This document shows positions 1 to 39,387 of a stretch of 43,407 bases of DNA, in pieces. Numbering within the stretch: the first letter of the stretch is position 1; each line of letters begins with the position of its first letter. The stretch spans positions 1 through 43,407 of the forward strand of contig JADGPQ010000002.1 of assembly GCA_017882325.1 (NCBI GenBank), written 5' to 3'. The notes under the pieces are model-generated. The model was not told the origin of the DNA. It searched no databases and worked only from the letters and a program-made list of their open reading frames with translations. A program made the position numbers and the translations under genes. The DNA is from Thermoleophilia bacterium (GTDB lineage Bacteria; Actinomycetota; Thermoleophilia; UBA2241).

Positions 1-831
1 ATGCGCACGGCGCCGCGCGACGACCTCATCGCGGCGCAGACGCGACCGGAGCAACAGGGCCTCGCCTTCGGCCTGCACCGCAGCATGGACACCCTGGGCG
101 CCGTCATAGGACCGTTGATCGCGCTGGCACTCGTGCAAGCGCACGTCTCGCTGCGCTGGATCTTCGCCATCGCCGTCGTGCCGGGGCTGCTGAGCGTGCT
201 CGCGATCATGCTCTTCGTGCGCGAGCACCGAGAGCAGCCCCAGCGCCGCGCCTTTCGCCTGTCGCTGCCGGCCTCACCGGCCTTCCGCTGGCTGCTGGCC
301 GGCACCCTGCTGTTCGCGGTGGGCAACTCGAGCGACATGTTCATCCTGCTCAAGGCCAAGGATGTCGGCATGGGGACGTCGGCGGTCATCCTCCTCTACG
401 TGCTCTACAACGTCGTGTACTCAGCCGGGTCGCTGCCGCTTGGCGGCCTCAGCGACCGCGTCGGTCAGTACCCGCTGGTGATCGCCGGTTACTGCGTGTT
501 CGCGGTCGTCTACCTCGGGTTCGCCGGCGCCGGGTCGGGCCTGGCGCTGGCCGGCCTCTTCGCCACGTACGGCCTCTACATCGCCGCCACCGAGGGCACG
601 AGCAAAGCGTTGATCGGGCGCGCCATCCCCACCGGCGAGCGCGCTTCGGCGCTCGGCCTGTACTACACGGCCACCGGTCTCGCGAGCTTCGCCGCCAGTA
701 CGGTCGGGGGGGCGCTCTGGGGCTCCGTGGGGCCGTGGGCGACCTTCGCGTTCGGGGCGGCGGCGGCCCTGGCCGCCGCCTCACTGATGCTGCTCGGCCG
801 CGGCAAGGTGCGCCGGGCGCTCGCGGCGTAG
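1..831 (+). CDS. MFS-family transporter, C-terminal part (5' end outside window)
   Basis: ORF is open at position 1. Its 276 aa are almost entirely helix-length hydrophobic segments (IFAIAVVPGLLSVLAIMLFV, LLAGTLLFAVGNSSDMFILL, LVIAGYCVFAVVYLGFAGAG). TAG stop at 829-831. Confidence 0.7.
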   Translation: MRTAPRDDLIAAQTRPEQQGLAFGLHRSMDTLGAVIGPLIALALVQAHVSLRWIFAIAVVPGLLSVLAIMLFVREHREQPQRRAFRLSLPASPAFRWLLAGTLLFAVGNSSDMFILLKAKDVGMGTSAVILLYVLYNVVYSAGSLPLGGLSDRVGQYPLVIAGYCVFAVVYLGFAGAGSGLALAGLFATYGLYIAATEGTSKALIGRAIPTGERASALGLYYTATGLASFAASTVGGALWGSVGPWATFAFGAAAALAAASLMLLGRGKVRRALAA

Positions 832-963
832 CCGAGCCCGGCGCGCCGACCGTCATCGTGAGCCGCGGTCATGTGAAATAGCGGACAAGGCTTGCCCGGA
901 TTCCCTGGCGGCTTTACACTACCTGCGAGAGTACAATCACCTTGCAACCTCGGACAGGGCATC

Positions 964-1018: not shown

Positions 1019-1558
1019 ATGAGCGCTCCGTCTCGTACCCTCGCCACCGACATCCTCGAGGCCACCGGCATCAACCCCGCGACGTGCTATCAGTGCGGCA
1101 AGTGCTCCGCCGGCTGCCCGATGGCGTCCGAGTCCGACCTGCGCCCGCACAACGTGATGCGCCTGGTCGTGCAGGATCGCCGGGAAGCCGCCCTGTCCGA
1201 ACAGTCCATCTGGCTCTGCCTCACCTGCGAGACCTGCTCGGCTCGCTGCCCCAATGCCTGCGACCCGGCCCGTGTCATCGACGCGGTTCGCGAGATGAGC
1301 ATCGAGGCCGAGGTCGCCGACATGCCGCGCAACGTCGCCGCCTTCCATCGCGCTTTTCTTGAGCAGATCCGCACCAACGGCCGGCTGCACGAGATGGGCA
1401 TGGTGATGGAGTACAAGCTGCGCAGCGGCGACCTCATGAAGGACGTCATCAACGCGCCGGGCATGCTCAGCCGCGGGAAGCTGAGCTTCCGCGCGGAGCG
1501 CATCGAGGGCGTCGCCGAGATCAAGCGGATCTTCGAGAAGTGCGGCGTGACCCCGTGA
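1019..1558 (+). CDS. hdrC: Heterodisulfide reductase subunit C-like 4Fe-4S protein
   Basis: Two ferredoxin motifs (CYQCGKCSAGCP and CLTCETCSARCP). First gene of an hdrC-hdrB-hdrA series. Confidence 0.85.
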   Translation: MSAPSRTLATDILEATGINPATCYQCGKCSAGCPMASESDLRPHNVMRLVVQDRREAALSEQSIWLCLTCETCSARCPNACDPARVIDAVREMSIEAEVADMPRNVAAFHRAFLEQIRTNGRLHEMGMVMEYKLRSGDLMKDVINAPGMLSRGKLSFRAERIEGVAEIKRIFEKCGVTP

Positions 1559-2595
1559 CCGAGACTGCCGCGACGTCGCGAGCCGCGATGACCGATGTCG
1601 CCTACTATCCCGGCTGCTCGCTGCACGGCACCTCCCGTGAATTCGACGAGAGCCTCCGCGCCGTGGCCGCCGAGCTGGGCATCGGCCTCACCGAGATCGC
1701 CGACTGGTCATGCTGTGGCGCCAGCAGCGGCCACACCACCGACCACCTGCTCGGCGTAGCGCTGCCGGCGCGCAACCTCGCGCTGGCTGAAGCGCAGGGC
1801 TTCGACACCGTGCTCGCGCCCTGCGCCGCCTGCTACAACCGCCTCTCGGCGGCCCGCCTGGCGATCGCCACCGAGGACGGCCTCGCCGAACAGATGCCCG
1901 ACATCCTCGGCCACCCGTTCGCCAACAGCGTGGACGTGCACAACGCCGTCGAGCTGCTCCGCGACGCGTCCGTGACCATCGAGGAGAAGGTGGCCGCGAC
2001 CCTCGCGCCCAATCCTCTCGAGGGCGTCAAGCTGGCGGCCTACTACGGCTGCCTGCTGGTGCGCCCGTTTGAGGTGTGCGGCTACGACGACCCCGAGCAG
2101 CCCACCTCGATGGACGAGGTCATAGACGCCTGCGGCGCCGACGACGTGGATTGGGACATGAAGGTCGAGTGCTGCGGCGGCGCCTTCAGCGTGAGCCGCA
2201 CCGCGTCGGTGCTGCGGCTTGGGCGCGCCATCATCGACAACGCCCGTTCCCACGGCGCGGAGGCCATCATCGTGGCCTGCCCGCTGTGCCACTCCAACCT
2301 CGACCTCCGTCAGAAGGCCATGGCCCAGCGCGGCGAGGAGCCCATGCCGATCCTGTTCGTCACGCAGATGGTCGGCCTCGCCCTCGGGCTGGCGCCCGTG
2401 GACCTCGGCCTGGGCCGTCACTTCGTCGACACCGAGCCGCTCATCGCGCGCCTTGTGCAGCAGGCGGCGAAGCGCGTCGCGGCAGAGAAGCTCGCCAAAG
2501 AGGAGGCCGCCGCCAAGGCCGCGGCCCGCGCCGAGAAGCAGAAGGTCGGAGTCGCTGCCGGTACCTCCGGCGCCGAAGGCGGTGAGGCTCAGTGA
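1555..2595 (+). CDS. hdrB: Heterodisulfide reductase subunit B-like (CCG-domain) protein
   Basis: CCG-type Cys motifs (DWSCCGAS, KVECCGGAF, ACPLCHSNL). GTG 1555 overlaps the hdrC stop (GTGA), the same coupling seen at other junctions of this operon. The track start 1540 is less likely. Confidence 0.85.
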   Translation: MTETAATSRAAMTDVAYYPGCSLHGTSREFDESLRAVAAELGIGLTEIADWSCCGASSGHTTDHLLGVALPARNLALAEAQGFDTVLAPCAACYNRLSAARLAIATEDGLAEQMPDILGHPFANSVDVHNAVELLRDASVTIEEKVAATLAPNPLEGVKLAAYYGCLLVRPFEVCGYDDPEQPTSMDEVIDACGADDVDWDMKVECCGGAFSVSRTASVLRLGRAIIDNARSHGAEAIIVACPLCHSNLDLRQKAMAQRGEEPMPILFVTQMVGLALGLAPVDLGLGRHFVDTEPLIARLVQQAAKRVAAEKLAKEEAAAKAAARAEKQKVGVAAGTSGAEGGEAQ

Positions 2596-4619
2596 GCCGC
2601 ATCGGCGTCTTCATCTGCCACTGCGGCGAGAACATCGGCCGCACCGTCGACTGCGAGGCGGTCACCGAGGCCCTCAAGGACCACCCGGGCGTCGCCTTCA
2701 CCGAGGACTACAAGTACATGTGCTCCGACCCCGGCCAGCAGCTCGTCAAGAAGGCCATCGAGGACAACGACCTCACCGGCGTGGTCGTGGCCGCCTGCTC
2801 GCCGCACATGCACGAGAAGACCTTCCGCCGCGCCTGCGACCAGGCCGGCCTCAACAAGTACATGTGCGAGATGGCCAACATCCGCGAGCACTGCAGCTGG
2901 ATCCACGAGGACCGCGGCGAGGCCACCGAAAAGGCCGTCGACATCACCCGCACCATCGTCGAGAAGGTCAAGCACAACCAGCCGCTGGAGAGTATCCACA
3001 TCCCCGTCACCAAGCGCGCCCTCGTGATCGGCGGCGGCATCGCCGGCATCCAGGCGGCGCTCGACATCGCGGACGGCGGCCACGAGGTTGTGCTCGTCGA
3101 GAAAGAAGCCTCGATCGGCGGCCACATGAGCCAGCTCAGCGAGACGTTCCCGACGCTGGATTGCTCGCAGTGCATCCTCACGCCACGCATGGTCGAGGCG
3201 TACCAGCACCCCAACATCAAGCTCCACACCTGGAGCGAGGTCGAGAAGGTCGACGGCTACATCGGCAACTTCACCGTGAAGATCCGCAAGAAGGCGCGCT
3301 CGGTGAACGAGGACCTCTGCAACGGCTGCGGCGACTGCCAGGAAGCCTGCCCGGCGAAACGCATCCCCAGCGAGTTCGAGGCCGGGCTCGGCAACCGCAC
3401 GGCGATCTACGTGCCGTTCCCGCAGGCGGTGCCCAACATCCCGGTGCTCGACCGCCAGAACTGCACCCTCTTCAAGGGCCGCCGCAAGGGCCTGGCCAAG
3501 GACGCCTGCGGCAAGTGCAAGGAGGCGTGCCTCAAGGACGCCATCGACTACGACGCCGAGGACACCTTCATCGAGGAGGAGATCGGCGCCATCGTGGTGG
3601 CCACGGGATTCCAGCTGTACAGCATCGGCCGCGAGCAGCCCGAGGGCCTCAAGGGCTACGGCGAGTACGGCTACGGCGAGGTGCCGGACGTCATCGACGG
3701 CCTGCAGTTCGAGCGCCTGGCGTCGGCCTCGGGGCCGACCGCAGGCGCCATCCTCAGGCCGTCCGACGGCAAGGAGCCCAAGACGGTGGTCTTCGTCCAC
3801 TGCGTGGGCTCCCGCGACTCCGAGAAGGGCATATCGTACTGCAGCAAGATCTGCTGCATGTACAACGCCAAGCACGCCATGCTCTACAAGCACAAGGTGC
3901 ACGACGGCCGCGCCGTGGCCTTCTACATGGACATCCGCGCCGCCGGTAAGGGCTACGACGAGTTCAGCCGGCGGGCCATCGAGGAAGACGGCGCCGAGTA
4001 CATCCGCGGGCGCGTCAGCCGCATCTTCCGCGACGGCGACGTCGTGAAGGTGTGGGGTTACGACACGCTGAGCCAGGAGCAGGTGGTGATCGACGCCGAC
4101 ATGGTGGTGCTGGCCACGGCCATGCGACCCCAGGACGGCGTCCGCGAACTCGCGCAGAAGCTCAGCGTGAGCACCGACGAGCACGGCTTCATCAATGAGG
4201 CGCACCCCAAGCTGCGCCCGGTGGAGACGAACACCGCCGGGGTCTTCGTGGCCGGCGCCTGCCAGGCGCCGCGCGACATCCCCGACGCGGTCGCGATGGC
4301 CAGCGCCACCGGCGCCAAAGTGCTGAGCCTGTTCAGCGCCGACGAGCTCGAGCGCGAGCCGGCGGTGGCGATCGTCAACGAGAACACCTGCATCGGCTGC
4401 ATGAACTGCGCCAAGGTGTGTGCCTACGGCGCCATCGAGCAGCGCGAGATCTGCACCGTCGACGGTCACGTCTGCGGCCACGTCGCCTACGTGAACCCCG
4501 GCGTGTGCCAGGGTTGTGGCACGTGCCAGGCGGTCTGCCTCAGCAAGAGCGTCGAGCTGCAGACGTTCACCGACGAGCAGATCTTCAGCGAGATCAACGC
4601 TCTCTGCTACTGGGAGTGA
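2592..4619 (+). CDS. hdrA: Heterodisulfide reductase subunit A-like FAD/Fe-S protein
   Basis: 675 aa. N-terminal FICHCGENI Cys cluster, GGGIAGIQAALD dinucleotide fold, and 4Fe-4S motifs CNGCGDCQEACP, CIGCMNCAKVC and CQGCGTCQAVC. GTG overlaps the hdrB stop. Confidence 0.9.
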   Translation: MSRIGVFICHCGENIGRTVDCEAVTEALKDHPGVAFTEDYKYMCSDPGQQLVKKAIEDNDLTGVVVAACSPHMHEKTFRRACDQAGLNKYMCEMANIREHCSWIHEDRGEATEKAVDITRTIVEKVKHNQPLESIHIPVTKRALVIGGGIAGIQAALDIADGGHEVVLVEKEASIGGHMSQLSETFPTLDCSQCILTPRMVEAYQHPNIKLHTWSEVEKVDGYIGNFTVKIRKKARSVNEDLCNGCGDCQEACPAKRIPSEFEAGLGNRTAIYVPFPQAVPNIPVLDRQNCTLFKGRRKGLAKDACGKCKEACLKDAIDYDAEDTFIEEEIGAIVVATGFQLYSIGREQPEGLKGYGEYGYGEVPDVIDGLQFERLASASGPTAGAILRPSDGKEPKTVVFVHCVGSRDSEKGISYCSKICCMYNAKHAMLYKHKVHDGRAVAFYMDIRAAGKGYDEFSRRAIEEDGAEYIRGRVSRIFRDGDVVKVWGYDTLSQEQVVIDADMVVLATAMRPQDGVRELAQKLSVSTDEHGFINEAHPKLRPVETNTAGVFVAGACQAPRDIPDAVAMASATGAKVLSLFSADELEREPAVAIVNENTCIGCMNCAKVCAYGAIEQREICTVDGHVCGHVAYVNPGVCQGCGTCQAVCLSKSVELQTFTDEQIFSEINALCYWE

Positions 4620-4620
4620 C

Positions 4621-5130
4621 GTGAGCGACGCAGTCGACACGAGCGGCGCGGCTGCCGACGGCTTCGAGCCGCGCATCACCGCCTTCGTCTGCAACTGGTG
4701 CACGTACACCGGCGCCGACCTTGCGGGCACGAGCCGCTTGCACATGGCCAGCAACGTGCGCATCATCCGCCTGCCCTGCACCGGCCGCATCGACCCGCTG
4801 TTCATCGTCAAGTCCTTCGAGCGCGGCGCCGATGGCGTGATCGTCAGCGGCTGCCACCCGGCCGACTGCCACTACACCTCGGGCAACTACCATGCCCGCC
4901 GGCGCTTCGCCGTGTTCCACGACCTCATGGAGTTCGTCGGCGTCGACCCGCGACGCATGACCTTCTCTTGGGTCTCCGCGAGCGAGGGCGCCAAGTGGCG
5001 CGACGTGGTTGACGAAGCCGTAGCCAACGTGCGGGCCCTGGGGCCGTTCGAGGCGTACCGCGCACTGGCGCCGGAGGATGCCGGCGTGGCTGCGCCGGCC
5101 GGCGCGAGGGTCGAAGCCGAGGCCTCATGA
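4621..5130 (+). CDS. mvhD: MvhD/FlxD-like 2Fe-2S electron-transfer protein
   Basis: FVCNWCTYTGADLAG...RLPCTGRIDP...VSGCHPADCHY signature. GTG 4621 lies one nt after the hdrA stop. The track start 4516 lies inside hdrA. Confidence 0.85.
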   Translation: MSDAVDTSGAAADGFEPRITAFVCNWCTYTGADLAGTSRLHMASNVRIIRLPCTGRIDPLFIVKSFERGADGVIVSGCHPADCHYTSGNYHARRRFAVFHDLMEFVGVDPRRMTFSWVSASEGAKWRDVVDEAVANVRALGPFEAYRALAPEDAGVAAPAGARVEAEAS

Positions 5131-6008
5131 GCGAGGTGCGCGAGGTCGCCCGAAAGCTTCTCACCGACGGCACGGTGCGCGTGATCGTCGGCTGGGAGGA
5201 TGCCCGCCGCGGCGCGCGGCCGGTCTTCGTCACCGACCCGGCCGATACGGAACGGCTCATCTTCGACACGCGCTGCGTGCACAATCTCGTCACCTATCTG
5301 AACCCGCGCCGCGACAACGTCGCCGAGCTCGGCAAGATCGGCCTCGTGGTCAAGGGCTGCGACGCCAAGGCGGTCGCGGGCCTGCTGCGTGAGGCGCAGC
5401 TCACGCGCGACGACGTCGTGCTCATCGGCGTCCGCTGTGGCGGCGTGCTGGAGGAAGCGGAGCTTCCCAAGGCCGCGTCACTGAGCCCGGAGAACGTCGC
5501 CCCGCGCTGCTACGGCTGCGACAACCGCGAGCCGGAGCTCGTCGACCACCTGCTCGGCGAGTCGCAGCCCGAACCGCCGCGGCCGGTCATGACCATCGAC
5601 GAGCGCGTCGCCGCGCTCGACGCGCAGCCGCTCGAGGAACGCTGGGCCTTCTGGACCGAGCAGTTCTCCAAGTGTGTGCGCTGCTACGCGTGCCGCCAGG
5701 TGTGCCCGCTGTGCGTCTGCGAGCGGTGCGTGGCCGAGAAGAGCCGGCCACAGTGGATCGAGGCGCCGCCACACCCGCGCGGCAACCTGAGCTGGAACAT
5801 CACCCGTGCCCTGCATCTCGCCGGCCGCTGCGTGGACTGCGGCGAGTGCGAGCGCTTCTGCCCCGTCGGTATCCCGCTCAGCCTCGTGAACCGCAAGCTG
5901 CAGCACATCGTGGCGGAGCGGTACGGCTACACCGTCAGCGATGATCCCGAGAGTCCCGCGCCCATCGGCGACTACCGGCTCGACGACAAGCAGGAGTTCA
6001 TCAAGTGA
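5127..6008 (+). CDS. FlxC-like 4Fe-4S dicluster protein
   Basis: CVRCYACRQVCPLC and CVDCGECERFCP motifs. ATGA overlap with mvhD. The position matches the Fe-S subunits of Flx-Hdr type clusters. Confidence 0.65.
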   Translation: MSEVREVARKLLTDGTVRVIVGWEDARRGARPVFVTDPADTERLIFDTRCVHNLVTYLNPRRDNVAELGKIGLVVKGCDAKAVAGLLREAQLTRDDVVLIGVRCGGVLEEAELPKAASLSPENVAPRCYGCDNREPELVDHLLGESQPEPPRPVMTIDERVAALDAQPLEERWAFWTEQFSKCVRCYACRQVCPLCVCERCVAEKSRPQWIEAPPHPRGNLSWNITRALHLAGRCVDCGECERFCPVGIPLSLVNRKLQHIVAERYGYTVSDDPESPAPIGDYRLDDKQEFIK

Positions 6009-7186
6009 CGGACGCGACGCGCGAGACGTACTTCATCAGCGACGACGATCTGCGCGCGCTGGCCGGGGATCTGCTGAGCGCGGGCACGGAAGTGATCGCG
6101 CCGGTGGCGGTGGACGTCTGCGCCTCGCCGTCGGCGATCGCCTCGTCGGCCTGCCTGCGTCCCGGGGTCGCGCCGGTCGACATCGAGTACCGCGCGCTCG
6201 CCGACGCCGCCGAGCTCGACCTGAGCCGGGGCCTGCCGGTGCTGTCGCTCAAGCAGTACTTCCTGCCCGGACACGAGGCCCTGTGCTGCTGGCGTCAGCA
6301 CGGCACCGAGGTCGAGATCGAAGCGGTGCCCACGACGTTCGCGCCGCGCGTCGTGCTGGCGGCGAAGTCCTGCGACAGCGCTGCCTTGGCCATCGTCGAC
6401 AAGGTCATGAACTGGGACTACCAGGACGAGCTGTGGAACGGCCGCCGCGAGGCCACGACGATCGTCAACCTCGCCTGCCCCGTCGTCGACGAGAGTTGCT
6501 TCTGCACGGCTGTCGGCACGGCGCCAGACGACGTCAAGGGCGCCGACGCTCTGCTCACGCCTGTCGAGGGCGGCTATTTGATGGAGGCGACCACCGACAA
6601 GGGGCGCGTCCTGATGGAGGCCCACGGGGCGCGCTTCAAGGCGGAGACCGACACCCACGGCGCGAAGCACCGCGGCCGCCAGGCCGCGGAGGAACGCGCC
6701 GCCGCCCGCGCCCGCGTCGCCGCCAACCTCGAGATCGACGCCGAGTCGGTGCGCGAGTGGATCGACGCGCACTTCGAGGACCCGCTGCTCGCCGCACTCG
6801 GCGTGCGCTGCAACGGCTGCGGCGCCTGTTCGAGCGTCTGCCCCACCTGCCACTGCTTCGACATCGTCGACGAGGAAGAGGGCATCGGCAAAGGCACCCG
6901 GCGGCGGTGCTGGGACACCTGTCAGGCGCCGACCTTCACGCTGCATGCCAGCGGCCACAATCCGCGCGACGACCAGCACTCGCGCTACCGGCAGCGCATC
7001 AATCACAAGTTCGCCATCTACCCGCTCAAGTTCGGCGAGGTGCTGTGCACGGGGTGCGGCCGCTGCACACGAGCCTGCCACGCCGGCCAGGACCTCGTCG
7101 AGATCCTCCAGGCCATCGACATCGCCGCGCGGCGGCCCGACGCAGCCGCGGCCGCCGTCGCCGGGGCGGAGCCGGCCGGCTCGTGA
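6005..7186 (+). CDS. FlxB / AsrA / HydB-like Fe-S subunit
   Basis: CNGCGACSSVCPTCHCFD and CTGCGRCTRACH motifs, typical of the beta subunits of sulfhydrogenase/anaerobic sulfite reductase-like modules. GTGA overlap upstream. Confidence 0.65.
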   Translation: MTDATRETYFISDDDLRALAGDLLSAGTEVIAPVAVDVCASPSAIASSACLRPGVAPVDIEYRALADAAELDLSRGLPVLSLKQYFLPGHEALCCWRQHGTEVEIEAVPTTFAPRVVLAAKSCDSAALAIVDKVMNWDYQDELWNGRREATTIVNLACPVVDESCFCTAVGTAPDDVKGADALLTPVEGGYLMEATTDKGRVLMEAHGARFKAETDTHGAKHRGRQAAEERAAARARVAANLEIDAESVREWIDAHFEDPLLAALGVRCNGCGACSSVCPTCHCFDIVDEEEGIGKGTRRRCWDTCQAPTFTLHASGHNPRDDQHSRYRQRINHKFAIYPLKFGEVLCTGCGRCTRACHAGQDLVEILQAIDIAARRPDAAAAAVAGAEPAGS

Positions 7187-8013
7187 ACATCTATCAGCCT
7201 CAGCTCGCCCTCGTGACGGCACTCACCGACGAGACGCACGACACGCGCACCCTACGCTTGGAGTTCGAGGATGAGGCCCTGCGCGACTCGTTCGACTTTC
7301 ACGCCGGGCAGTTCGGCGAGTACAGCGTGTTCGGCGCCGGCGAGAGCACCTTCTGCATCGCCAGCGCGCCGACCCGCAAAGGCTTCATCGAGTGCAGCTT
7401 CAAGGCCGTAGGCAAGGTGACGTCCGCGCTCCGCGAAGTGAACGTCGGCGACACCGTGGGCTTTCGCGGCCCGTACGGCAACTGGTTCCCGGTGGACGAA
7501 TGGAAAGGCAAGGACGTGGTCTTCATCGCCGGCGGCATCGGCCTGGCGCCGGTGCGCTGCGTGATCTGGAACGTGCTCGACCGCCGCGAGGAGTTCGGTG
7601 ACGTGACCATCGTGTACGGCGCGCGCTCGGTGGACGACTTGGTGTACAAGCGCGAGCTGGAAGAATGGGCCTCGCGCTCGGACGTCAAGATCGTGACCAC
7701 CGTCGACCCCGGGGGTGAAACGAAGGACTGGACCGGCGAGGTCGGTTACGTCACGCCGGTCGTCGAGGCGACGGCGCCCATGGCGCAGAACGCCGTCGCC
7801 GTGCTCTGCGGACCGCCCATCGTGGTCAAGCTCACGCTGCCCGTGCTCGACAAGCTCGGCTTCGCCGACGAGGCCATCTTCACCACGCTAGAGAACCGCA
7901 TGAAGTGCGGGCTCGGCAAGTGCGGCCGCTGCAACATCGGGCCCGTGTACGTCTGCAAGGACGGGCCCGTCTTCACCGCCGCCCAGCTGAAGGAGCTCCC
8001 GGCGGAGTTCTAG
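7183..8013 (+). CDS. FlxA / PyrK / AsrB-like FAD-NAD(P)H oxidoreductase subunit with C-terminal 2Fe-2S
   Basis: The real start is GTG 7183 (GTGA overlap). The 5941 track start is an alternate-frame artefact over the two upstream genes. Motifs: FIAGGIGLAPV nucleotide fold and CGLGKCGRCNIGPVYVCKDGP cluster. TAG stop. Confidence 0.8.
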   Translation: MNIYQPQLALVTALTDETHDTRTLRLEFEDEALRDSFDFHAGQFGEYSVFGAGESTFCIASAPTRKGFIECSFKAVGKVTSALREVNVGDTVGFRGPYGNWFPVDEWKGKDVVFIAGGIGLAPVRCVIWNVLDRREEFGDVTIVYGARSVDDLVYKRELEEWASRSDVKIVTTVDPGGETKDWTGEVGYVTPVVEATAPMAQNAVAVLCGPPIVVKLTLPVLDKLGFADEAIFTTLENRMKCGLGKCGRCNIGPVYVCKDGPVFTAAQLKELPAEF

Positions 8014-8387
8014 GCGGCGGCTCCTGGTGGAGTTGTGGCGCCGCCCGCGAGCACCTCTTGTGCTCGCCTTAGATTTTTCGCTGCGACCCTGACCTCGCAT
8101 GGGCCGTCCGTGGCAAGGTGTCGCGGGAAGAGGTCGGCGAGACGGCGAAGCCCGGCTCGCCGCACGGCGACCACCTCGGCATCAATGCCGCGCTGCGCGA
8201 GACGAGAGACCGTCGGCAGAGCGTCTTCATACCGATCCACCGTGGCCACGGGAACTGTAGGGGATGCCGGCGGCGTCCAGGGCCTCGCGATGCGCTTCAG
8301 GAGAGCCTCTTGTGACACTTCTCCAGCCGTTCCAGATAGATTGCGCTGCAGCTCGGCCTCATCGGCCTCGGGGAAGCGCTGCCTCAC
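8010..8387 (-). CDS. Hypothetical protein (possibly a start-less remnant)
   Basis: 125-aa ORF from GTG 8387. The same frame stays open up to 8579 and encodes a helical segment (QLYLEALRRLTPEQRLLKAFELTELTRELLG) with no ATG/GTG/TTG. The 3' end overlaps the hdr-flx terminator. Confidence 0.3.
   Translation of the reverse strand: MRQRFPEADEAELQRNLSGTAGEVSQEALLKRIARPWTPPASPTVPVATVDRYEDALPTVSRLAQRGIDAEVVAVRRAGLRRLADLFPRHLATDGPCEVRVAAKNLRRAQEVLAGGATTPPGAAA
8047..8078 (+). terminator. Intrinsic terminator of the hdr-flx operon
   Basis: GCGAGCAC (8047-8054), loop CTCTT, GTGCTCGC (8060-8067), followed by CTTAGATTTTT. It starts 34 nt after the TAG stop. Confidence 0.8.
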
Positions 8388-8695
8388 GCCGACGCCGAGA
8401 AGCTCGCGCGTCAGCTCGGTGAGCTCGAAGGCCTTTAGGAGGCGCTGCTCCGGCGTCAGCCGGCGGAGCGCCTCGAGGTAGAGCTGGTGGTTCGGCCGCG
8501 GCTTCGGGTCCGTCGGGGAAGGATAGCACCGTGAAGGGCTGTGGCCGCTGCCGGGTGCCCGAAGGCGCTGCGCAGGCGTCTACGCACTGCCCCAGAAACC
8601 CCACGGGCTCTTGGCTGGACCCAGGATGGCGTACCATCACTGCAGACGTTGGCCGGACTCGGCCTGGGGGAGGTTGCAGCGTGGAGGACAAGCGG

Positions 8696-9682
8696 ATGGA
8701 GATGACACCGGATGCCGGCGAAAGAACCATGACGACGCATGCGGCAGGCGCAACCCGGGCGCAGGTCGCGGCGGTCGTGGGCGCCCCAGACTTCGTGCTG
8801 CCCTGGCTCGACCGTTTCTACGACGGCGACGCCGTCGAGCTCCTGCTGGCCTTCGCCACGCTGAGCGAAATTGATGACGAGCCGACCGCACTCGACGACG
8901 TCGATCCGGCGCGCCTCGAGCGCGCCGTGCGCCGCGCCGTCCTGGACCGCGACGAGGCCGGCGCGTACGCGCCGGCCTCCTTCCGCGACCGTCTCGAGAT
9001 CTGGGCCATGCTCGAAGGCTGGAAGGACATCCCGTCGGCCCTACACCGGGAGCTCGCCGACTGGGAGGTCGGGAACTACGCGGAGTCGATCCGCGAGGGG
9101 CTCGAAGCCCTGAAGGACGGCCGCTCGGCCGACTCCGATCAGGCCGGCTACACCTATCTGCTGCTTGCTGAGGGCGAGGACGTCATCGCCGCTGAGGAAC
9201 ACGTCTACTTGTGGCCGTGCGACTGCCGCGCCATCGTAGGCCGCTGCCGCAAGCCGGCCAACGTCTGCCTGCGCTTCGAAAACGACCGCGGTCTCGGCTG
9301 GGAGATCTCGAAGGAGCGCGCCGTGGAAACCCTGCGCGCGGCCGACAGAGCCGGCCTCACGCACACCGGCCACCCCAGGGGGAGTGAGCCCGCTCCAGGC
9401 GCCATCTGCAACTGCTGCACAGACTGCTGTTTCCCCCACCTGGCCACGGAGCGACTGGGGACCAGCGACGTGTGGCCGGTGCGTCGCCACGTCGCCGTCA
9501 TCGACGAGGACGCGTGCAGGCCCTGCGGCCGCTGCGCCCGCCGCTGCCCGTTCGCCGCCATCACCGCCGACTCCGTCGGGAGCCCGCGGCTCGAGCCTGC
9601 GGCCTGCCGCGGCTGCGGCCTGTGCTCCACGACCTGCCCCACCGAGGCCATCGCCATGCGGCCTCTCGTCGCTCCGGCTTGA
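8696..9682 (+). CDS. Cys-rich Fe-S protein with C-terminal 2x[4Fe-4S] ferredoxin domain, function unknown
   Basis: ATG 8696 is preceded by GGAGGA 7 nt upstream; the track start 8531 lacks an RBS. Motifs: WPCDCRAIVGRCRKPANVC, ICNCCTDCCFP, CRPCGRCARRCP, CRGCGLCSTTCP. Confidence 0.6.
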   Translation: MEMTPDAGERTMTTHAAGATRAQVAAVVGAPDFVLPWLDRFYDGDAVELLLAFATLSEIDDEPTALDDVDPARLERAVRRAVLDRDEAGAYAPASFRDRLEIWAMLEGWKDIPSALHRELADWEVGNYAESIREGLEALKDGRSADSDQAGYTYLLLAEGEDVIAAEEHVYLWPCDCRAIVGRCRKPANVCLRFENDRGLGWEISKERAVETLRAADRAGLTHTGHPRGSEPAPGAICNCCTDCCFPHLATERLGTSDVWPVRRHVAVIDEDACRPCGRCARRCPFAAITADSVGSPRLEPAACRGCGLCSTTCPTEAIAMRPLVAPA

Positions 9683-9790: not shown

Positions 9791-11260
9791 TCAATGCACG
9801 CCGAATTCTTCCTCTGCAGACCTGATTATCGACTTGAGTTTCGCCGCTACCTCTGGGGGCAGAGGCTCGGGCTCGTGCGTCTCGAGGATCCTGCGGGCCT
9901 CCACGAGGGCGCGGTCGTAGAGGCTCGTCGACCCGGATGCGGCCCAGTCCTCCCGGACCCTCCGGTCGATGAGCGTCGAACGCGACTGCCCGCGCATGCC
10001 CTTGTAGGTGTCGTCGTGCGAGAGGAAGTCGCTAAACGGACCCACCTCGGCGATGACGTCGACCGAGAGCGTCTCGTCGGTGACCGGGATCCCCGGCACG
10101 CAGAACTTGACCATGCGCGCGAACTCGGCGTCCATGACGAGCTGCGCGTAGTCGATGGTGACGCCCGATTCCAGCATCCCCAGCCCGTAGATCAGGTTGG
10201 CCCCTGCCAACGCCGGCAGCAGGCTGGTGAGCGTCTTCTCGTGACCGGATTGGGCGTCCGCCACTTTGGAGTCGCCCTACGCACCGGCGACCCAGCTGGG
10301 CAGCAGGTAGAAGCGCGCCAGACAGGCGACGCCGGCGCCGATCATCGCGCACTCGGGGCTGCCCACCGAGGCGCTGGCGAAGCGCAAGTCCATGGCGGTC
10401 GTCGACGACCCGTAGATCACGGGCGCGCCCTTCACCGTGAGCTGCGCCAGCGTGATGCCGGCGAGGACTTCCGCGTTGTGCGTCACGAGCGTGCCGGCGA
10501 GACTGACTGGCGAGGAGCCTCCGGCCATCGCCATGGAGAGCACGTTGACCGGCACGCCGGCGCGCACGCCTTCGATGATGATGCGGCAGGCATCGGCGAC
10601 CAGCTTGAGCGGGCTCACCGGGCAGGTCAGGAACGAGACGATCGGCCGCTTGCGGAGCTGGTCGCGGCCGCCGACGATAGCGGCCGCCATGTCGATCATC
10701 TTGCGGGCACAGAAGCCCGAGAGAGGGCCGATGGTGGCGTGCTTCGTCGTGTTCGAGAAGATCGCCTCAGCGTTGTGCAGGGCGGCGGTGTCGGGCGGCA
10801 CGTCGTGCGCCCCGAGCGGCCGCTCGACGACATCGATCTCGGGGAGCGCGTCGATGATCCTCGTGCAGTCGGCGACGTCCTGCTTGCGCGACTCGTGCAA
10901 CTCGCCGGTGTACGGATCGACGACCTGGATGCCCTCGCCGAAGTTGGTGAATCCGACGCGGCCGTCTTCGAGCACGACGTCGTTGGCGGGGTCGCGTCCG
11001 CACATGACCACCTTGGGCGGAGCGGAGCGGATGGCGTCTTCGACGACATGCGCAGGCAGGCACGCCACCCGGCGCGCGCGATCGATGTCCGCCCCGGCAT
11101 CCGCGAAGATCTGAAGGGCCTCGTCGTCTTCGACGAAGACGCCGGTCTGCGACAGCACTTCGAGCGTCGCAAGATGGATCTCGTTGAGCTCGTCGTCGGT
11201 GAACACTTCGAGCCTGAAACCGCCGCTCTTGCGCGCGCCCGCGCGCGGGTTCCGTCTCAT
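9791..11260 (-). CDS. mttB: Trimethylamine:corrinoid methyltransferase MttB, pyrrolysine type (one in-frame UAG)
   Basis: Track ORFs 10277..11920 (from the internal ATG 11260 with a GGAGG RBS) and 9791..10264 share one frame and are separated only by TAG 10277-10279 plus 4 sense codons. The joined 489 aa is colinear with the MttB family and with the two uninterrupted paralogues in this window. ATGA overlap with the mtbB stop. Confidence 0.85.
10277..10279 (-). other. In-frame UAG, predicted pyrrolysine codon of mttB (codon 328)
   Basis: Plus strand reads cta. Context is ...YLLPSWVAGA-UAG-GDSKVADAQSGHEKT... The paralogues read LPNWGYAGTTDAQVIDAQAG and LPVRAGAAVTDAHVPDAQAA across the same column. 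Confidence 0.8.
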
Positions 11261-12663
11261 TTCGCGCCTCCGGTCGGCGTCGTGCGCTCCTTGAACTTCT
11301 CGACGCAGTTGATGGGCACGTCCAGCACGCGGGCGATGTTGAACTTCGCCTCGATCTGGTTCGCCTGCCAGGGCTGGCTGATGGCGTAGCTGTGGATGCG
11401 GCCGAAGCCGTGTTCGTTGCGGACGTCGGTCATGACCACCGGGTCCGAGAGGTCGAAGGGGGTCACGCCGAGCTTGCCGGCCACGTAGTCCTTTGCTTCC
11501 TTGAGACGCATGCCGCGGGTCATTTGCATTCGAGCCACCAGGTCTCCGGCTGCTCGCATACCGCCCATGCCCGCTGCCTGCGCGTGAGCGTTGTGCATCC
11601 CGTGAGGGTCGCCCGAGCCCACCTACAAGCCATCGACGTGCAGGAGGTCGACGCACGACTTGGCCGCCCGGCTCACGGCGTCGGCCGGCGCGTGCACGAA
11701 CATCGGCACGGCGCCGACGCCCATGCCGGCGTTCATGTGCACGGGAATGGTCGCGACCTCCATGCACGGCTTCACCAGGGCGATCGCACGGGCGATGTTC
11801 CAAGCGCAGCTCTTGCCGGTGTTGACGTTGACGACCGGTCCGAACATGGTGGCGCCGGCCTGCTGCGCAAGGAGCAATTGCTCCTTGGGCCACAGGCCGG
11901 CGAGGCGCACGCCCTCCCACTCGAGCTGACCGTGCATGCCGAGCACGAACTCGCCGGCCATGCCCAGCTGGACGCCGAGATCGGGGTACTTCTCACGGAT
12001 GATCGCGGTCGCCCTCAGGGCGGCGAGGAACTCCGGGTCGCCGGAGGCGCCGGTGGTGTCCCAGTCGATCGCATCGGCGCCGGCCTCGTACTGCGAATCG
12101 GCGAGGCGGACCATGTCGAGGACGGCCATCTCGACGGCTTCTTCTTGAGCGGCCCGCGCCTCGGCGATCTTGCCGAGCGGCAGGAGCTCGTTCCAGTTGT
12201 CGCAGGGGCCGTCCGGCTTCGAGTAAAGCCCGAGATTGGGCATCACGCCGTACTGCAGCGGCGCGACCGTGCAGAGCAGGGCGTCGTGCATGTACTGCGC
12301 CTCGTAGGAGAGGATCGTGCGCACGACCTTGAGTGAGTAGTCGCCGACGCACAGTTCCAGCAGGTCGGCGCCCATCCACTGCTCGTAGGACTGCAGGTCC
12401 TGGATGCGCGAGGCGTGAGTCTTCATGCCGGTGCCGTCGCAACTCAGGATGATCTCGTCGCCGACGTCGACGCCGGTGAAGCGCGCCGCCGAAGCGTAGA
12501 TGTCGAGCAGATGATCCAGCTCTACGTCGGTGAGAGGCGGCACTTTGGCTCTCTTGACTGCCGCCTCCGACCCCGCCACGAGATCCGCTCTGATCTCGCT
12601 GCGCGTCAGGCGCGCGAAGGTGCCGTCCCCCATGCGGGTCGGCACCCGGGCTTCGTTCGTCAT
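11257..12663 (-). CDS. mtbB: Dimethylamine:corrinoid methyltransferase MtbB, pyrrolysine type (one in-frame UAG)
   Basis: Track ORFs 11623..12723 and 11257..11622 are contiguous in one frame, separated only by TAG 11623-11625. The joined product is 468 aa from ATG 12663 (RBS GAGGAGGG). Family blocks seen: RMGDG, YGVMPNLGLY, DTTGASGD, GMAGEFVLGMHG, LAGLWP, GMRAAGDLVARM. Confidence 0.85.
11623..11625 (-). other. In-frame UAG, predicted pyrrolysine codon of mtbB (codon 347)
   Basis: Plus strand reads cta. Context is ...LLHVDGL-UAG-VGSGDPHGMHNAH... This matches, from memory, the GVDGI-Pyl-IGVGDP block of Methanosarcina MtbB. Confidence 0.8.
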
Positions 12664-12730
12664 CCTGTCCCTCCTCGTTCCACAGGCTCGTCTCCTCAGT
12701 GCGTCGTCCGACGATCTCGTCACTGGCCCG

Positions 12731-13708
12731 TCACAGCGGCAAACGGACGCCCGCCCCGCGCTCGAGAGCCCGCTCGTACAGCACCATGGCCGTGACCATG
12801 TCGTCGACGGCGATGCCCATGTTCATCGAAAAGACGCGCTCGCTCTCGCTCTCGCGTCCGGGCTTGAGGCCCGCGGCCAGCTCGCCGAGATCGGCGCTGA
12901 TGGCCGCGGGGATCCCGCCGAAGTAGACGCCGTGCTCCTTGGTCGCGAGCAGCTGGGCCACGTCGTCCGAACAGAATTTGTCGCACTCGGTCATGGCTGC
13001 GCTGGTCCAGGCGGTGTCGTAGTCGAGCGAGACGCCCAAGCCTCCTTCCTTGAGCATGCCGGCGTCGAGATCGGGTTCGGGCTTCACCACGATCGGTATG
13101 GCAGTGACCACGACGTCGGCGGGCCGCACCGCGTCGGGGGCAGAAGCGCAGGTCACGAAGCGCAGCGCCGGGAACCGCGTCGCCATGTCGGCGATGAAGC
13201 GCTGGGTCGCTTCCGGGAAGATGTCGTAGCAGCGCACTTCGCTCAGGGCCGGCAGCTCCTCGACCAACGCCATGAGGCTGGTGCGCGCCTGCACGCCGCA
13301 GCCGACCATGGCGGCGGTGTCGCTGCCCGAGCGGGCCAGGTACCTGGCCGAGATGCCGGCGCTCGCCCCTGTGCGCATGGCGGTGATCCAGGCGCAATCC
13401 ATCACCGCCAGCGGCACGCCGGTCTCGCAGTCGTTGAGGATCAGCAGACCGCTGATGTACGGCAGGCCCTTGGCAGAGTTGGGCGGATAGCCGGAGACCC
13501 ATTTGAGGCCGGCCACCTCGAGCTCCTGCACGTACGCCGGCATGGCGTGGATGAAACAGTCGGGCCGCGTGTGGATGCCGGGCTTGGGCGGCATCTCCGT
13601 GTTGCCGCGGCCCTTGGCGGCGAAGCCGCGGTCGAGCGCGTCGAGCACTTCTCTCATGGACATGCCGAGGCCCTCGATGTCGGCCTGGCTCAAGTAGACA
13701 AGTTCCAC
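12731..13708 (-). CDS. Ornithine cyclodeaminase / mu-crystallin family NAD(P) enzyme
   Basis: GTG 13708 has GGAGG 6 nt upstream, giving 325 aa. Motifs: WITAMRTGASAGISARYLA and MVGCGVQART Rossmann segment. First gene of the mtbB-mttB cassette. Confidence 0.75.
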   Translation of the reverse strand: MELVYLSQADIEGLGMSMREVLDALDRGFAAKGRGNTEMPPKPGIHTRPDCFIHAMPAYVQELEVAGLKWVSGYPPNSAKGLPYISGLLILNDCETGVPLAVMDCAWITAMRTGASAGISARYLARSGSDTAAMVGCGVQARTSLMALVEELPALSEVRCYDIFPEATQRFIADMATRFPALRFVTCASAPDAVRPADVVVTAIPIVVKPEPDLDAGMLKEGGLGVSLDYDTAWTSAAMTECDKFCSDDVAQLLATKEHGVYFGGIPAAISADLGELAAGLKPGRESESERVFSMNMGIAVDDMVTAMVLYERALERGAGVRLPL

Positions 13709-13767
13709 CTCACGCCTCCTGCTTGATCGTCTCGCGTCATGGAGGGGGTACACACGGCACTCCCGTG

Positions 13768-13795
13768 ACAATACAGAGACCCGCTTCCAACGCAA
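13768..13795 (-). promoter_or_regulatory. Candidate sigma70-type promoter of the OCD-mtbB-mttB cassette
   Basis: Minus strand reads TTGCGT (13795-13790), 16 nt spacer, TATTGT (13773-13768). It lies about 60 nt upstream of GTG 13708. Confidence 0.3.
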
Positions 13796-13881
13796 CATCT
13801 CGCGGCACGAGCCTCGAAAGTGGGCTGGCGCGGCGCCCAGGGGCGCGCGCCGGCGCCGCCAGAGGACGAGCTAGCGAGTCT

Positions 13882-21180: not shown

Positions 21181-22197
21181 TCAGCCCTCCACGGCGCTGC
21201 CGAAATGCTGGCCGCCGATCTCGACCCAGGTGCCCAGCTCGCGCTCCTTGGCCTTCGTGTACACGTGGTGCGCGGCCGCGAGGTCTTCGATGGCGATGCC
21301 GAGCGACTTGAACAGCGTGATCTGATCGGGTGACGTCCGCCCAGGCGCTTTGCCGGTGAGCACCTCGCCGATCTCACCGACGATGTGGGCGTCGCCGATC
21401 AGCCCTTCGCCCTTGGGGATGAGGAACTCGCCGGATTCGCTGAGCAGAGATTCACGCCGGTCCGCGTACAGGCGGGCGCCGGCGACGAGCTCGGAATCGA
21501 GCTCCCTCGTCGCCGGCGTGTACGCTCCGACGGCGTTGATGTGGGCGCCGGGGCTGACCCAGGCGCCGAGGACGACCGGCTCGGTGGCCGTGGTCGTCGT
21601 GCAGATGAGGTCGGCGCCGGTGACGGCCTCCTCGGCGGTGGCGGCGACCTGAACGGTGAGACCCGTGAGCCGCGACTCGCGCGCCGCGAACGCCTCGGCG
21701 CTCTCGGCCGGCACGCTGTACACGCGCACGCGCCGCAGCGGCCGCACGGCGCGCATCGCCTGGAGGTGCGTGTGCGCCTGCGTCCCGGCGCCGATGATCG
21801 CGAGGTCGCCGGCATCCGGACGCGCGAGCAAGTCGGTGACGAGACCGCTCACGGCGGCGGTCCGGATCGCCGTGATCGACGTGGCGTCGACGATGGCGCG
21901 CAGCAGGCCACGTTCGCTGTCGAAGAACAGGACGACGCCCTGGTGCGTGTCGTACCCAGTGCCGAAGTTGGCGGGGAAGGCGGCGACCACCTTGACGCCG
22001 AACGCCTCCAGGCCGCCCAGGTACGATGGCATCAGGCCCATGACCCGGTCGCCGCCGGGCATGACCAGCATCTGGCGCAGCGGCATGACGACGTCGCCCT
22101 CGGCGAGCATCGTGAGGGCCCGGCGCATCACGTCGATGGCCTCTTCCATCGGGAGAAGCTCGGTGACCAGCCGCTGGTCCGCGATCAGCGCCTTCAT
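21181..22197 (-). CDS. Ornithine cyclodeaminase / mu-crystallin family NAD(P) enzyme (second paralogue)
   Basis: 338 aa. SITAIRTAAVSGLVTDLLA and IIGAGTQAHTH motifs. ATGA overlap with the upstream gene. Confidence 0.8.
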   Translation of the reverse strand: MKALIADQRLVTELLPMEEAIDVMRRALTMLAEGDVVMPLRQMLVMPGGDRVMGLMPSYLGGLEAFGVKVVAAFPANFGTGYDTHQGVVLFFDSERGLLRAIVDATSITAIRTAAVSGLVTDLLARPDAGDLAIIGAGTQAHTHLQAMRAVRPLRRVRVYSVPAESAEAFAARESRLTGLTVQVAATAEEAVTGADLICTTTTATEPVVLGAWVSPGAHINAVGAYTPATRELDSELVAGARLYADRRESLLSESGEFLIPKGEGLIGDAHIVGEIGEVLTGKAPGRTSPDQITLFKSLGIAIEDLAAAHHVYTKAKERELGTWVEIGGQHFGSAVEG

Positions 22198-38004: not shown

Positions 38005-39384
38005 TCAGACCAGGCAGAGCTTGTCAAGCTGGCGGCGGACGAGAGGATCGAGATCGTCCGGAGGTGTGAAGGCTTCCAGGCGGCGCGCCACTTCGCCGGC
38101 CGCCGCCCGGCGAGCGTCCACGCCACCCCCGTCCGTCCATTTCTCGAGTGCGTCGCGCGCCAGGAAGGTGGACCGGTCATGGTCGCGGGCGTGTGCCCGG
38201 GTATGACCGGCCGACAGGTAGCTGCCGGCGGGACCGATCTCCGCGATGACGTCCTCGGCGAGGTCCTCGCGATTAGTCCGGACCGGCCGTTCGAGCGCAC
38301 TCTGTCCGGCGAGCATCTCGTCGTCGAGCACGAACTTCTCGAGAGAGACGACGTTGAAAGCGCTCAGGATGCCGGCGGCTTGGAAGACGAAGTCGGCGCC
38401 GGCGCGGACCGCGCTGGCAAGGCCCCGAAGTGATTCAGCGGCCGCCTGTGCGTCGGGCACGTGCGCGTCGGTGACGGCGGCGCCTGCGCGCACCGGCAAG
38501 CCGCAGTGATGTGCGAGTCGCACGGATGCCACAGCCATGCGCGCGAACTCCGGCGTGCCGAAGAGCGCGGCGCCGGTGCGCAACGACGCCATCGTCGAGA
38601 GGCCGCCGTAGATGAAGGGGGAGCCCGCGCCAGCGGCCTGGGATAGCACCAACGCGGCCAGCACCTCCGCGTGCTGTACTACGAGGACGCCGGCCGGCGT
38701 AGCAGGGCCAGTGGTGCCGCCCATCACGCAGGAGGTGATGCAGGTGGGCTGGCCGAGACGCGCCCAGCGGACGAGGAGCCGCGCCGTCTCCGAGGTGATC
38801 TGCAGCGGCGAGCTGGTGTTCAGGATGATCAGCCCGCGCGGGACCTCGTTCCACGCCGCCCCGAAGAGGATCTCGTGAGCGGCCACGGCCACATCGAGGT
38901 CGTCGTCAGTCGTCGCGACCCACTCGCTCGCCTTGTCGCTGAGCACCAGCCGTGCGTGAGTTCCACGCAGCGTCCGCCGCTCCTCCGGGAGGTCGAGCAG
39001 CTCGACGCTGTCGCCGTGGTACTCGATCGAGGACGAGACGTGCCCCAGCTTGATCGTGGCCTCGAGGTCGCCCAGGGTCCCCGGCCGCGCACGGTCGCCA
39101 TCGAGCACATAGGCGGGACCCGAGCATGAGCCGAAGACGGCGTGGCCGTCCCCGAAGCGCACGTCGCGGGCTGGCGATCGGCCGATGAGGGTGAAGGACG
39201 AGGGCGCGACGGCAAGCGCCGCCCGCACCGCGCCCTCCCCGATGAACACCCGCCGACCGTCGGCGCGTGCGCCGTGGGCGCGCAGAAGTGCGACGGCGGC
39301 GGTGTCGTGCACAAGCACGCCGGTGCGCTCGAGCACCCGCAGAGCCGCCTCGTGGACGGCCACGACATCGGCCTGCTCGATCAC
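38005..39384 (-). CDS. MttB-superfamily methyltransferase without pyrrolysine (quaternary-amine type), paralogue 2
   Basis: 459 aa from a GTG start. Colinear with MttB (VHEAALRVLERTGV, ILNTSSPL, MGGTTGPATPAG). It reads GAAVTDAHVPDAQAA through the Pyl column without interruption. Confidence 0.8.
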   Translation of the reverse strand: MIEQADVVAVHEAALRVLERTGVLVHDTAAVALLRAHGARADGRRVFIGEGAVRAALAVAPSSFTLIGRSPARDVRFGDGHAVFGSCSGPAYVLDGDRARPGTLGDLEATIKLGHVSSSIEYHGDSVELLDLPEERRTLRGTHARLVLSDKASEWVATTDDDLDVAVAAHEILFGAAWNEVPRGLIILNTSSPLQITSETARLLVRWARLGQPTCITSCVMGGTTGPATPAGVLVVQHAEVLAALVLSQAAGAGSPFIYGGLSTMASLRTGAALFGTPEFARMAVASVRLAHHCGLPVRAGAAVTDAHVPDAQAAAESLRGLASAVRAGADFVFQAAGILSAFNVVSLEKFVLDDEMLAGQSALERPVRTNREDLAEDVIAEIGPAGSYLSAGHTRAHARDHDRSTFLARDALEKWTDGGGVDARRAAAGEVARRLEAFTPPDDLDPLVRRQLDKLCLV

Positions 39385-39387
39385 CGC

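Follow-up and report, generated by a model that had tools for sequence, protein, structure and literature searches.

Dimethylamine methyltransferases that are encoded with an in-frame UAG for pyrrolysine (Pyl) have been described in methanogens (MtbB1 of Methanosarcina barkeri and the MtbB proteins of Methanomassiliicoccales/Methanomethylophilaceae), and bacterial Pyl systems have been described in Desulfitobacterium hafniense, Acetohalobium arabaticum, Bilophila, other Firmicutes, and Deltaproteobacteria. In Actinomycetota, the phylum of the Thermoleophilia, the pyrrolysyl-tRNA synthetase PylRS was counted in only two genomes (PMC9630628). Some Actinobacteriota bins from Stordalen Mire were reported, from metatranscriptomes, to express Pyl-encoding mttB and mtbB, which were recognised by their amber truncation (Ellenbogen et al. 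2023, PMC10805028); the passages of that report on these genes describe neither pyl genes nor the use of stop codons nor the sequence around the UAG. A full-text literature search for pyrrolysine together with Thermoleophilia retrieved no paper treating the subject, and thus the lineage has been noted but not characterised. Here, we analysed a stretch of 43,407 nucleotides from a Thermoleophilia bacterium (assembly GCA_017882325.1, contig JADGPQ010000002.1; hereafter the window), in which an mtbB gene with one in-frame UAG overlaps mttB on the minus strand. From comparative sequence evidence, we consider it highly probable (about 0.92) that this mtbB is a working gene for a Pyl-dependent dimethylamine:corrinoid methyltransferase.

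The MtbB of the window belongs over its full length to the same Pfam/NCBIfam family as the methanogen enzymes, carries the UAG in the same column and in a context common to both, D-G-(L/V)-UAG-(V/I)-G-x-G-D, falls in the same length class (~467 residues), and has mttB as its gene neighbour, an arrangement found in many methylamine gene clusters. It differs from them in its identity to archaeal and other distant representatives, which is only ~39–47%, in its host, a bacterium with 69% GC, and in having no adjacent mtbC, whereas a corrinoid gene adjoins mtbB in the methanogen loci L206–L210 (labels of this kind denote related loci retrieved in this analysis). With the bacterial Pyl systems, the Thermoleophilia share separate PylSc and PylSn proteins (PMC9630628), a tRNA-Pyl(CUA) together with pylBCD, the use of TAG as a common stop codon, and Pyl-type methyltransferases standing among non-Pyl MttB-family paralogues. 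The Stordalen bins, which belong to this phylum, have genes of this kind, and several of our related loci are themselves Stordalen bins (bog_752, palsa_645, palsa_647, and fen_672) with MtbB 85–90% identical in orthologous copies; the window comes from a different, closely related genome. The MttB-superfamily proteins of the MtgB/MtpB/MtcB type, associated with quaternary amines, have the fold family of the mttB product and a sense codon at the Pyl column, and MtbB lies outside this group. Textbook knowledge covers the gene class, its recoding, and the split synthetase of bacteria, and the occurrence of this recoded gene class in Actinobacteriota is already on record in the literature and in the NCBI annotation.

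Gene structure of mtbB and the pyrrolysine column

The features of the mtbB–mttB region are listed below with the evidence for each in brackets.

11257–12663, minus strand: mtbB, [dimethylamine--corrinoid protein] Co-methyltransferase, 468 codons including one UAG (PF09505 and TIGR02368)
12670–12674, minus strand: Shine–Dalgarno-like GGAGG, 7–11 nt 5′ of the mtbB ATG (sequence inspection)
11626–12663, minus strand: N-terminal 346 codons, annotated by gene callers as a truncated MtbB (database homologues)
11623–11625, minus strand: in-frame UAG, codon 347, proposed pyrrolysine codon (TAG column in homologues, Rfam PYLIS_2, and archaeal fragment ends)
11260–11622, minus strand: C-terminal 121 codons, read only with the UAG decoded (identity, dN/dS, and GC3)
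11526–11625, minus strand: match to Rfam PYLIS_2 (pyrrolysine insertion sequence, mtbB), 100 nt from the UAG (73.5 bits)
11257–11260, minus strand: ATGA overlap of the mtbB stop TGA and the mttB start ATG (sequence inspection)
9791–11260, minus strand: mttB, trimethylamine methyltransferase, 489 codons, in-frame UAG at 10277–10279, codon 328 (TIGR02369)

Translation of 11257–12663 gave only one internal stop and a terminal TGA at 11257–11259, and the product would consist of 346 residues, Pyl, and 121 residues (468 in total). A preliminary description of this DNA had proposed the same single UAG in a full-length mtbB, split into pieces of 366 and 121 aa, and its coordinates agree with the total of 468. 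The frame and the 121-aa piece were confirmed, while the 366-aa piece turned out to be a mechanical open reading frame (ORF) that begins at an upstream GTG (12723). ATG 12663 was taken as the true start, because more than 100 database homologues were called at exactly 346 aa and the GGAGG motif stands at a distance of 7–11 nt. The preliminary description had also held that the joined protein resembles MtbB from end to end, that both halves keep their coding character, and that the gene is coupled to mttB through ATGA, and all of this agreed with our results. With the TAG position entered as X, as in all profile searches and alignments, Pfam Dimeth_Pyl (PF09505) matched residues 8–459 of 468 in a single stretch across the TAG (E = 1.7e-161; 538 bits, cut-off 25), the product scored 398.5 bits on the NCBIfam equivalog TIGR02368 (cut-off 369.1), and every quoted motif was present; a family match of this order goes far beyond chance. 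The GC content at third codon positions (GC3) was 0.88 on the 5′ side of the TAG and 0.86 on the 3′ side, in a window with 68.8% GC, and the ATGA overlap is real.

A scan of one genome per species retrieved 79 related loci, nearly all of them Thermoleophilia/Actinomycetota bins from peat, soil, and lakes. The closest species representative was a lake bin (L039) with 97% identity in the N-terminal piece of MtbB. All 109 mtbB copies of these loci (40–100% identity, paralogues included) had TAG at the codon-347 column, and each had 102–134 open in-frame codons 3′ of it. In the alignment of 87 full-length MtbB sequences, X was confined to one column, and the mean pairwise identity was 0.681 before the UAG and 0.665 after it. 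The median ratio of nonsynonymous to synonymous substitution rates (dN/dS) against the mtbB of the window was 0.28 before the UAG and 0.18 after it. Purifying selection acts on the codons before the UAG and on those after it, and the gene is intact.

These results bear on two explanations that dispense with recoding. In the first, mtbB is a decaying pseudogene, cut short by a nonsense mutation, and the 121 codons past the TAG are a remnant, which would fit with gene callers annotating the 346-aa product only. The preliminary description had argued against decay, rightly in our judgement, and we regard it as extremely improbable: the TAG occupies one column in 109 of 109 homologues, this column is the Pyl position of the family, GC3 remains 0.86 after the TAG, and the downstream part is as well conserved at the protein level, with the lower dN/dS. 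In the second, the TAG is a sequencing or assembly error. This is scarcely credible, as the same TAG was found in separately recorded assemblies of different projects (L001 and the 79 further loci) and an equivalent TAG occurs in the adjoining mttB; L001 is a 1.2-kb contig of a Joint Genome Institute (JGI) metagenome (Ga0209226_10112374), recorded separately, with an identical, TAG-terminated N-terminal piece of MtbB. Both explanations were excluded, because the TAG is shared by all 109 homologues and the conservation and dN/dS after the TAG are equal to or better than those before it.

The UAG sits in the Pyl column of the MtbB family, in line with the preliminary description, which had assigned the codon to the pyrrolysine block of Methanosarcina MtbB. 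Positions 1–100 of the PYLIS_2 model aligned with 11526–11625, with the UAG of the model (positions 1–3) on the TAG. Distant N-terminal pieces of MtbB (353–356 aa, 39–47% identical), taken as representatives of 50%-identity clusters, all ended at residue 346 of the window protein. One of these clusters bears the name Candidatus Methanomethylophilaceae, and pyrrolysine use is known from that lineage (PMC4153887); its mtbB DNA reads GAC GGC GTC TAG GTC GGG, with the protein continuing as VGVGDP. The PDB contains no MtbB structure, and the structural check of the Pyl column was made for MttB only. A JGI metagenome protein of 463 aa (P0126), a full-length MtbB homologue with 37% identity, has Trp at the Pyl column (VDML-W-ATTGDPY) and may represent a non-Pyl branch of the MtbB family.

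The mttB product scored 732 bits on TIGR02369 (cut-off 525). Its alignment to PDB 7XCL begins at residue 3 of the 9791–11260 ORF, and its X aligned with Pyl334 of M. barkeri MttB (VAGS-X-SDAK) in that structure and with the Lys of the mutant 7XCM. The Rfam PYLIS_3 model (positions 1–100, 70.8 bits) matched 10180–10279, with the UAG of the model on the mttB TAG, and TAG was present at the Pyl column in 48 of 48 orthologues. The non-Pyl MttB-family paralogues in the related loci have a codon for Ser, His, Met, or Thr at this column. The window contains two non-Pyl MttB-family genes (38005–39387 and 39388 to ~40800), both below the TIGR02369 cut-off. At 39382–39390 on the minus strand, one of them ends in TAG (39388–39390), and the GTG start of the next lies two codons past this TAG in the same frame; read-through of this UAG would yield a fusion of ~930 residues.

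Pyrrolysine machinery in the lineage and its absence from the window

Metagenome contigs were scanned for PylSc with a deliberately GC-biased DNA pattern, in which two PylRS motifs were written in GC-rich codons. All 120 stretches returned encode PylSc homologues, and ~55 of them have at least 68% GC; ARAGORN called a tRNA-Pyl(CUA) in 39 of the 120 loci. Several of the GC-rich loci contain a corrinoid gene whose DNA shares as much as 96.6% identity with that of a corrinoid gene from a Thermoleophilia bin, and relatives retrieved with one such PylSc are named by NCBI as ‘pyrrolysine--tRNA(Pyl) ligase large subunit [Thermoleophilia bacterium]’ and ‘[Actinobacteria bacterium]’. A protein search with the PylSc of Methanosarcina mazei was uninformative for Thermoleophilia, its best 120 matches being all from Methanosarcina. 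The preliminary description had taken Pyl-type mtbB to lack an association with GC-rich genomes, which is contradicted by these ~55 loci and by the well over a hundred 90%-identity clusters of mtbB from Thermoleophilia bins in public data. Its reading of the UAG as pyrrolysine recoding is supported, but GC-rich genomes can no longer be regarded as devoid of such genes.

Machinery and methyltransferase were found together on contig_13825 of ENA (364,837 bp), with a split mtbB (346 + 114 aa, 79% identical to that of the window) at ~292 kb and pylSc at ~356 kb. Its sister contig L201 has an identical PylSc and carries the following components, for which the synthetase models were TIGR02367 and TIGR03912 (PylSc and PylSn).

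L201, PylSc: 305 bits (cut-off 178)
L201, PylSn: 121 bits (cut-off 51)
L201, PylC: 348 bits (cut-off 248)
L201, PylD: 184 bits (cut-off 150)
L201, pyl-type corrinoid protein: 223 bits (cut-off 215)
L201, 17466–17538: tRNA-Pyl(CUA) (ARAGORN)

The same layout recurs in L205, a contig of 641 kb. The lineage encodes the complete Pyl machinery, and of the pyl genes whose search the preliminary description had advised, pylSc, pylSn, pylT(CUA), pylB, pylC, and pylD were all recovered from the lineage, and none from the window. The gene order of the Thermoleophilia pyl locus (L201 1–20876, L205, L168, and L143) is unusual and conserved: OsmC, BacA, amidase, PylSc, S-adenosylmethionine (SAM) methyltransferase, corrinoid protein, radical SAM protein, PylSn, several unknown genes, tRNA-Pyl, PylD, PylC, and PylB. 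While other bacterial Pyl systems have a compact pylTSBCD operon, pylSc lies here ~7 kb from pylT and the pylD-pylC-pylB genes that follow it, with unrelated genes between them, and the mtbB–mttB pair is, again unlike those systems, tens of kb from the pyl cassette. In L168, L143, L167, and L164, the stop codon of the corrinoid gene is itself a TAG.

Several results weigh against Pyl decoding of this mtbB. Neither ARAGORN nor Rfam found a tRNA in the window, and hence no tRNA(CUA); the ARAGORN negative is validated by its recognition of tRNA-Pyl in the PylSc loci. Pfam scans of the called genes and tblastn detected no pylS, pylB, pylC, or pylD in the 43-kb window, none of the 79 related loci had a pyl gene within 10 kb of mtbB, and a tblastn search with M. 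mazei PylRS against the window and the 79 mtbB loci (1.27 Mb) gave no match. The link from mtbB to the machinery is made at the level of the lineage, the closest physical link being the relative with the 79% identical MtbB. On L201, PylB is present but frame-shifted or split, which we took, without proof, to be an assembly error, as neighbouring genes of that assembly are also broken. No gene for a B12-binding corrinoid protein was found in the window by Pfam scans of all called genes or by tblastn with the corrinoid protein of the lineage. We found protein-level evidence for pyrrolysine in no actinobacterium. With the Pyl genes masked, TAG ends 113 of the 514 confidently called genes (22%) in the related loci, and at this frequency efficient UAG read-through would extend other proteins too.

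A nearby corrinoid gene is the usual companion of mtbB and not a strict criterion for the enzyme; such a gene lies directly 3′ of mtbB in L052 and L054, and another in the pyl locus of the lineage. Since TAG still ends ~22% of ordinary genes, decoding of UAG must be ambiguous or conditional, and the codon is not reassigned. Other bacteria and archaea that use pyrrolysine have been described to decode UAG in this way (PMC12626013).

In another reading, the UAG is read through with a canonical residue, by near-cognate suppression, or with a non-canonical residue other than Pyl. In favour of it, the pyl genes are known at the level of the lineage, and the Trp of P0126 indicates that a non-Pyl residue is tolerable in some relatives. 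We nevertheless judge this highly improbable, since PylSc, PylSn, PylB, PylC, PylD, and tRNA(CUA) occur in the lineage and TAG is strictly retained, with no sense codon, across the whole clade, which argues that the encoded residue is one that no sense codon can supply.

In a further reading, the ribosome might stop at the UAG and restart at a GTG right after it, with the two polypeptides assembling into a split enzyme that has no pyrrolysine. In the window, the codon after the TAG is indeed GTG, a possible start, as it is in 78 of the 108 homologues. In the remaining 30 it is GTC, GTA, GTT, or GCN, none of which permits a start, and restart is therefore unlikely. Moreover, the window has no purine-rich ribosome-binding motif before the TAG, and the lineage retains a complete and costly Pyl cassette. 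The residue at the Pyl column is, as established for this enzyme family (Krzycki 2004, cited in PMC10805028), the one that binds the methylamine substrate. Together, these points leave the split enzyme very little probability.

We infer that the pyl genes are also present in this particular genome, and that the residue at codon 347 is pyrrolysine rather than another. Pyl-tRNA(CUA) would compete with release factor 1 at UAG 347 and insert pyrrolysine, and translation would continue for 121 codons to the TGA, giving the enzyme of 468 residues. The tRNA would be charged by the split PylSc/PylSn synthetase, and pyrrolysine would be made from lysine by PylB, PylC, and PylD, with the genes for both steps located elsewhere in the genome. 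Full-length MtbB, whose predicted substrate is dimethylamine, would bind it through pyrrolysine and methylate a cognate corrinoid protein in its Co(I) state; the product of the overlapping mttB would act likewise on trimethylamine. As the host is a bacterium, the methyl group would presumably not pass to coenzyme M, in which it would differ from that of the methanogens. The tryptic peptide spanning the junction of MtbB would presumably be SCVDLLHVDGL-O-VGSGDPHGMHNAHAQAAGMGGMR, where O is the pyrrolysine residue of 237.148 Da.

Standard gene callers split mtbB (346 aa + 121 aa) and mttB alike, and consequently methylamine use by this widespread actinobacterial lineage of peat, soil, and lakes is under-counted. 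In wetlands, bacteria that consume di- and trimethylamine are competitors of the methylotrophic methanogens for methane precursors. With 69% GC, frequent TAG stops, and encoded pyrrolysine, the lineage offers a useful natural example of ambiguous decoding, and divergent PylRS/tRNA-Pyl pairs can be drawn from it.

Sequence context of the UAG and TAG stop codons

The PYLIS_2 (RF02509) match in mtbB, at 73.5 bits (E = 4.8e-16), clearly exceeds the gathering score of 36. Across 95 distinct homologues, 74.7% of the model pairs were canonical, compared with 33–41% when the partner was shifted, and compensatory changes were observed at pair 75–90 in the distal hairpin; three pairs of the first stem were mostly non-canonical. 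Because the region overlaps strongly conserved coding sequence, a cis-acting or structural role of the element is not established.

The codon before the mtbB UAG (11626–11628, minus strand) was compared with that of homologues in L002–L080, L104, L172, L210, and L211. It was Leu-TTG in 94 of 108 Thermoleophilia-type homologues and CTG in only 2, although TTG makes up 5.4% of the Leu codons in nine genes of the window. TTG also precedes the UAG in 12 of 14 mtbB copies from other bacteria with 46–75% GC; Methanomethylophilaceae have Val-GTC, and not Leu-TTG, at this position. The base directly 3′ of the UAG was G in 108 of the 108 Thermoleophilia-type homologues. The pattern of TTG before the UAG and G after it suggests a constraint at the nucleotide level around the mtbB UAG.

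Apart from the two Pyl genes, the MttB-family gene described above, and a gene for a major facilitator superfamily (MFS) transporter, nearly all genes of the window end in TGA. The MFS gene, at the left edge, has a TAG stop followed by an in-frame TGA nine codons on (829–861, plus strand).

Genes surrounding mtbB and mttB

A gene cluster at 1363–9679 on the plus strand is convergent to mtbB–mttB and syntenic with this pair in many Thermoleophilia bins (L003, L012, L015, L027, L030, and L036). Its products are HdrB-like, HdrA2-like, and MvhD-like proteins, Fe-S proteins, proteins resembling the beta and gamma subunits of sulfhydrogenase (HydB/HydG), and a ferredoxin-domain protein of 419 aa; none of the cluster proteins reached an NCBIfam cut-off. 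The cluster may serve methyl-group oxidation as an electron-bifurcating partner. Neither a RamA-like activase nor a second methyltransferase was found within 43 kb of mtbB–mttB.

A broader scenario can be put forward only tentatively, and we consider it rather doubtful as a whole. In it, the Thermoleophilia of peat, soil, and lakes would form a large, uncharacterised clade of pyrrolysine users without TAG depletion, in which the local context (UUG before the UAG, G after it, and a hairpin 70–92 nt downstream) would perhaps direct insertion. The HdrA2/HdrB/MvhD/sulfhydrogenase-like cluster might then couple methylamine demethylation to electron bifurcation in an actinobacterium that is neither acetogenic nor methanogenic.

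Two genes of the ornithine cyclodeaminase (OCD)/mu-crystallin family are located on the minus strand at 12731–13798 and 21181–22197, the first directly upstream of mtbB. This first gene was considered as a diverged PylD and rejected, as its product belongs to the OCD family from end to end (E = 4.7e-59) and matched no PylD model. Around both cyclodeaminase genes are two HutH genes, HutU, a xanthine-dehydrogenase-family enzyme, a 2-oxoacid:ferredoxin oxidoreductase, and succinyl-CoA ligase-like genes, and this neighbourhood looks like one of amino-acid and amine catabolism.

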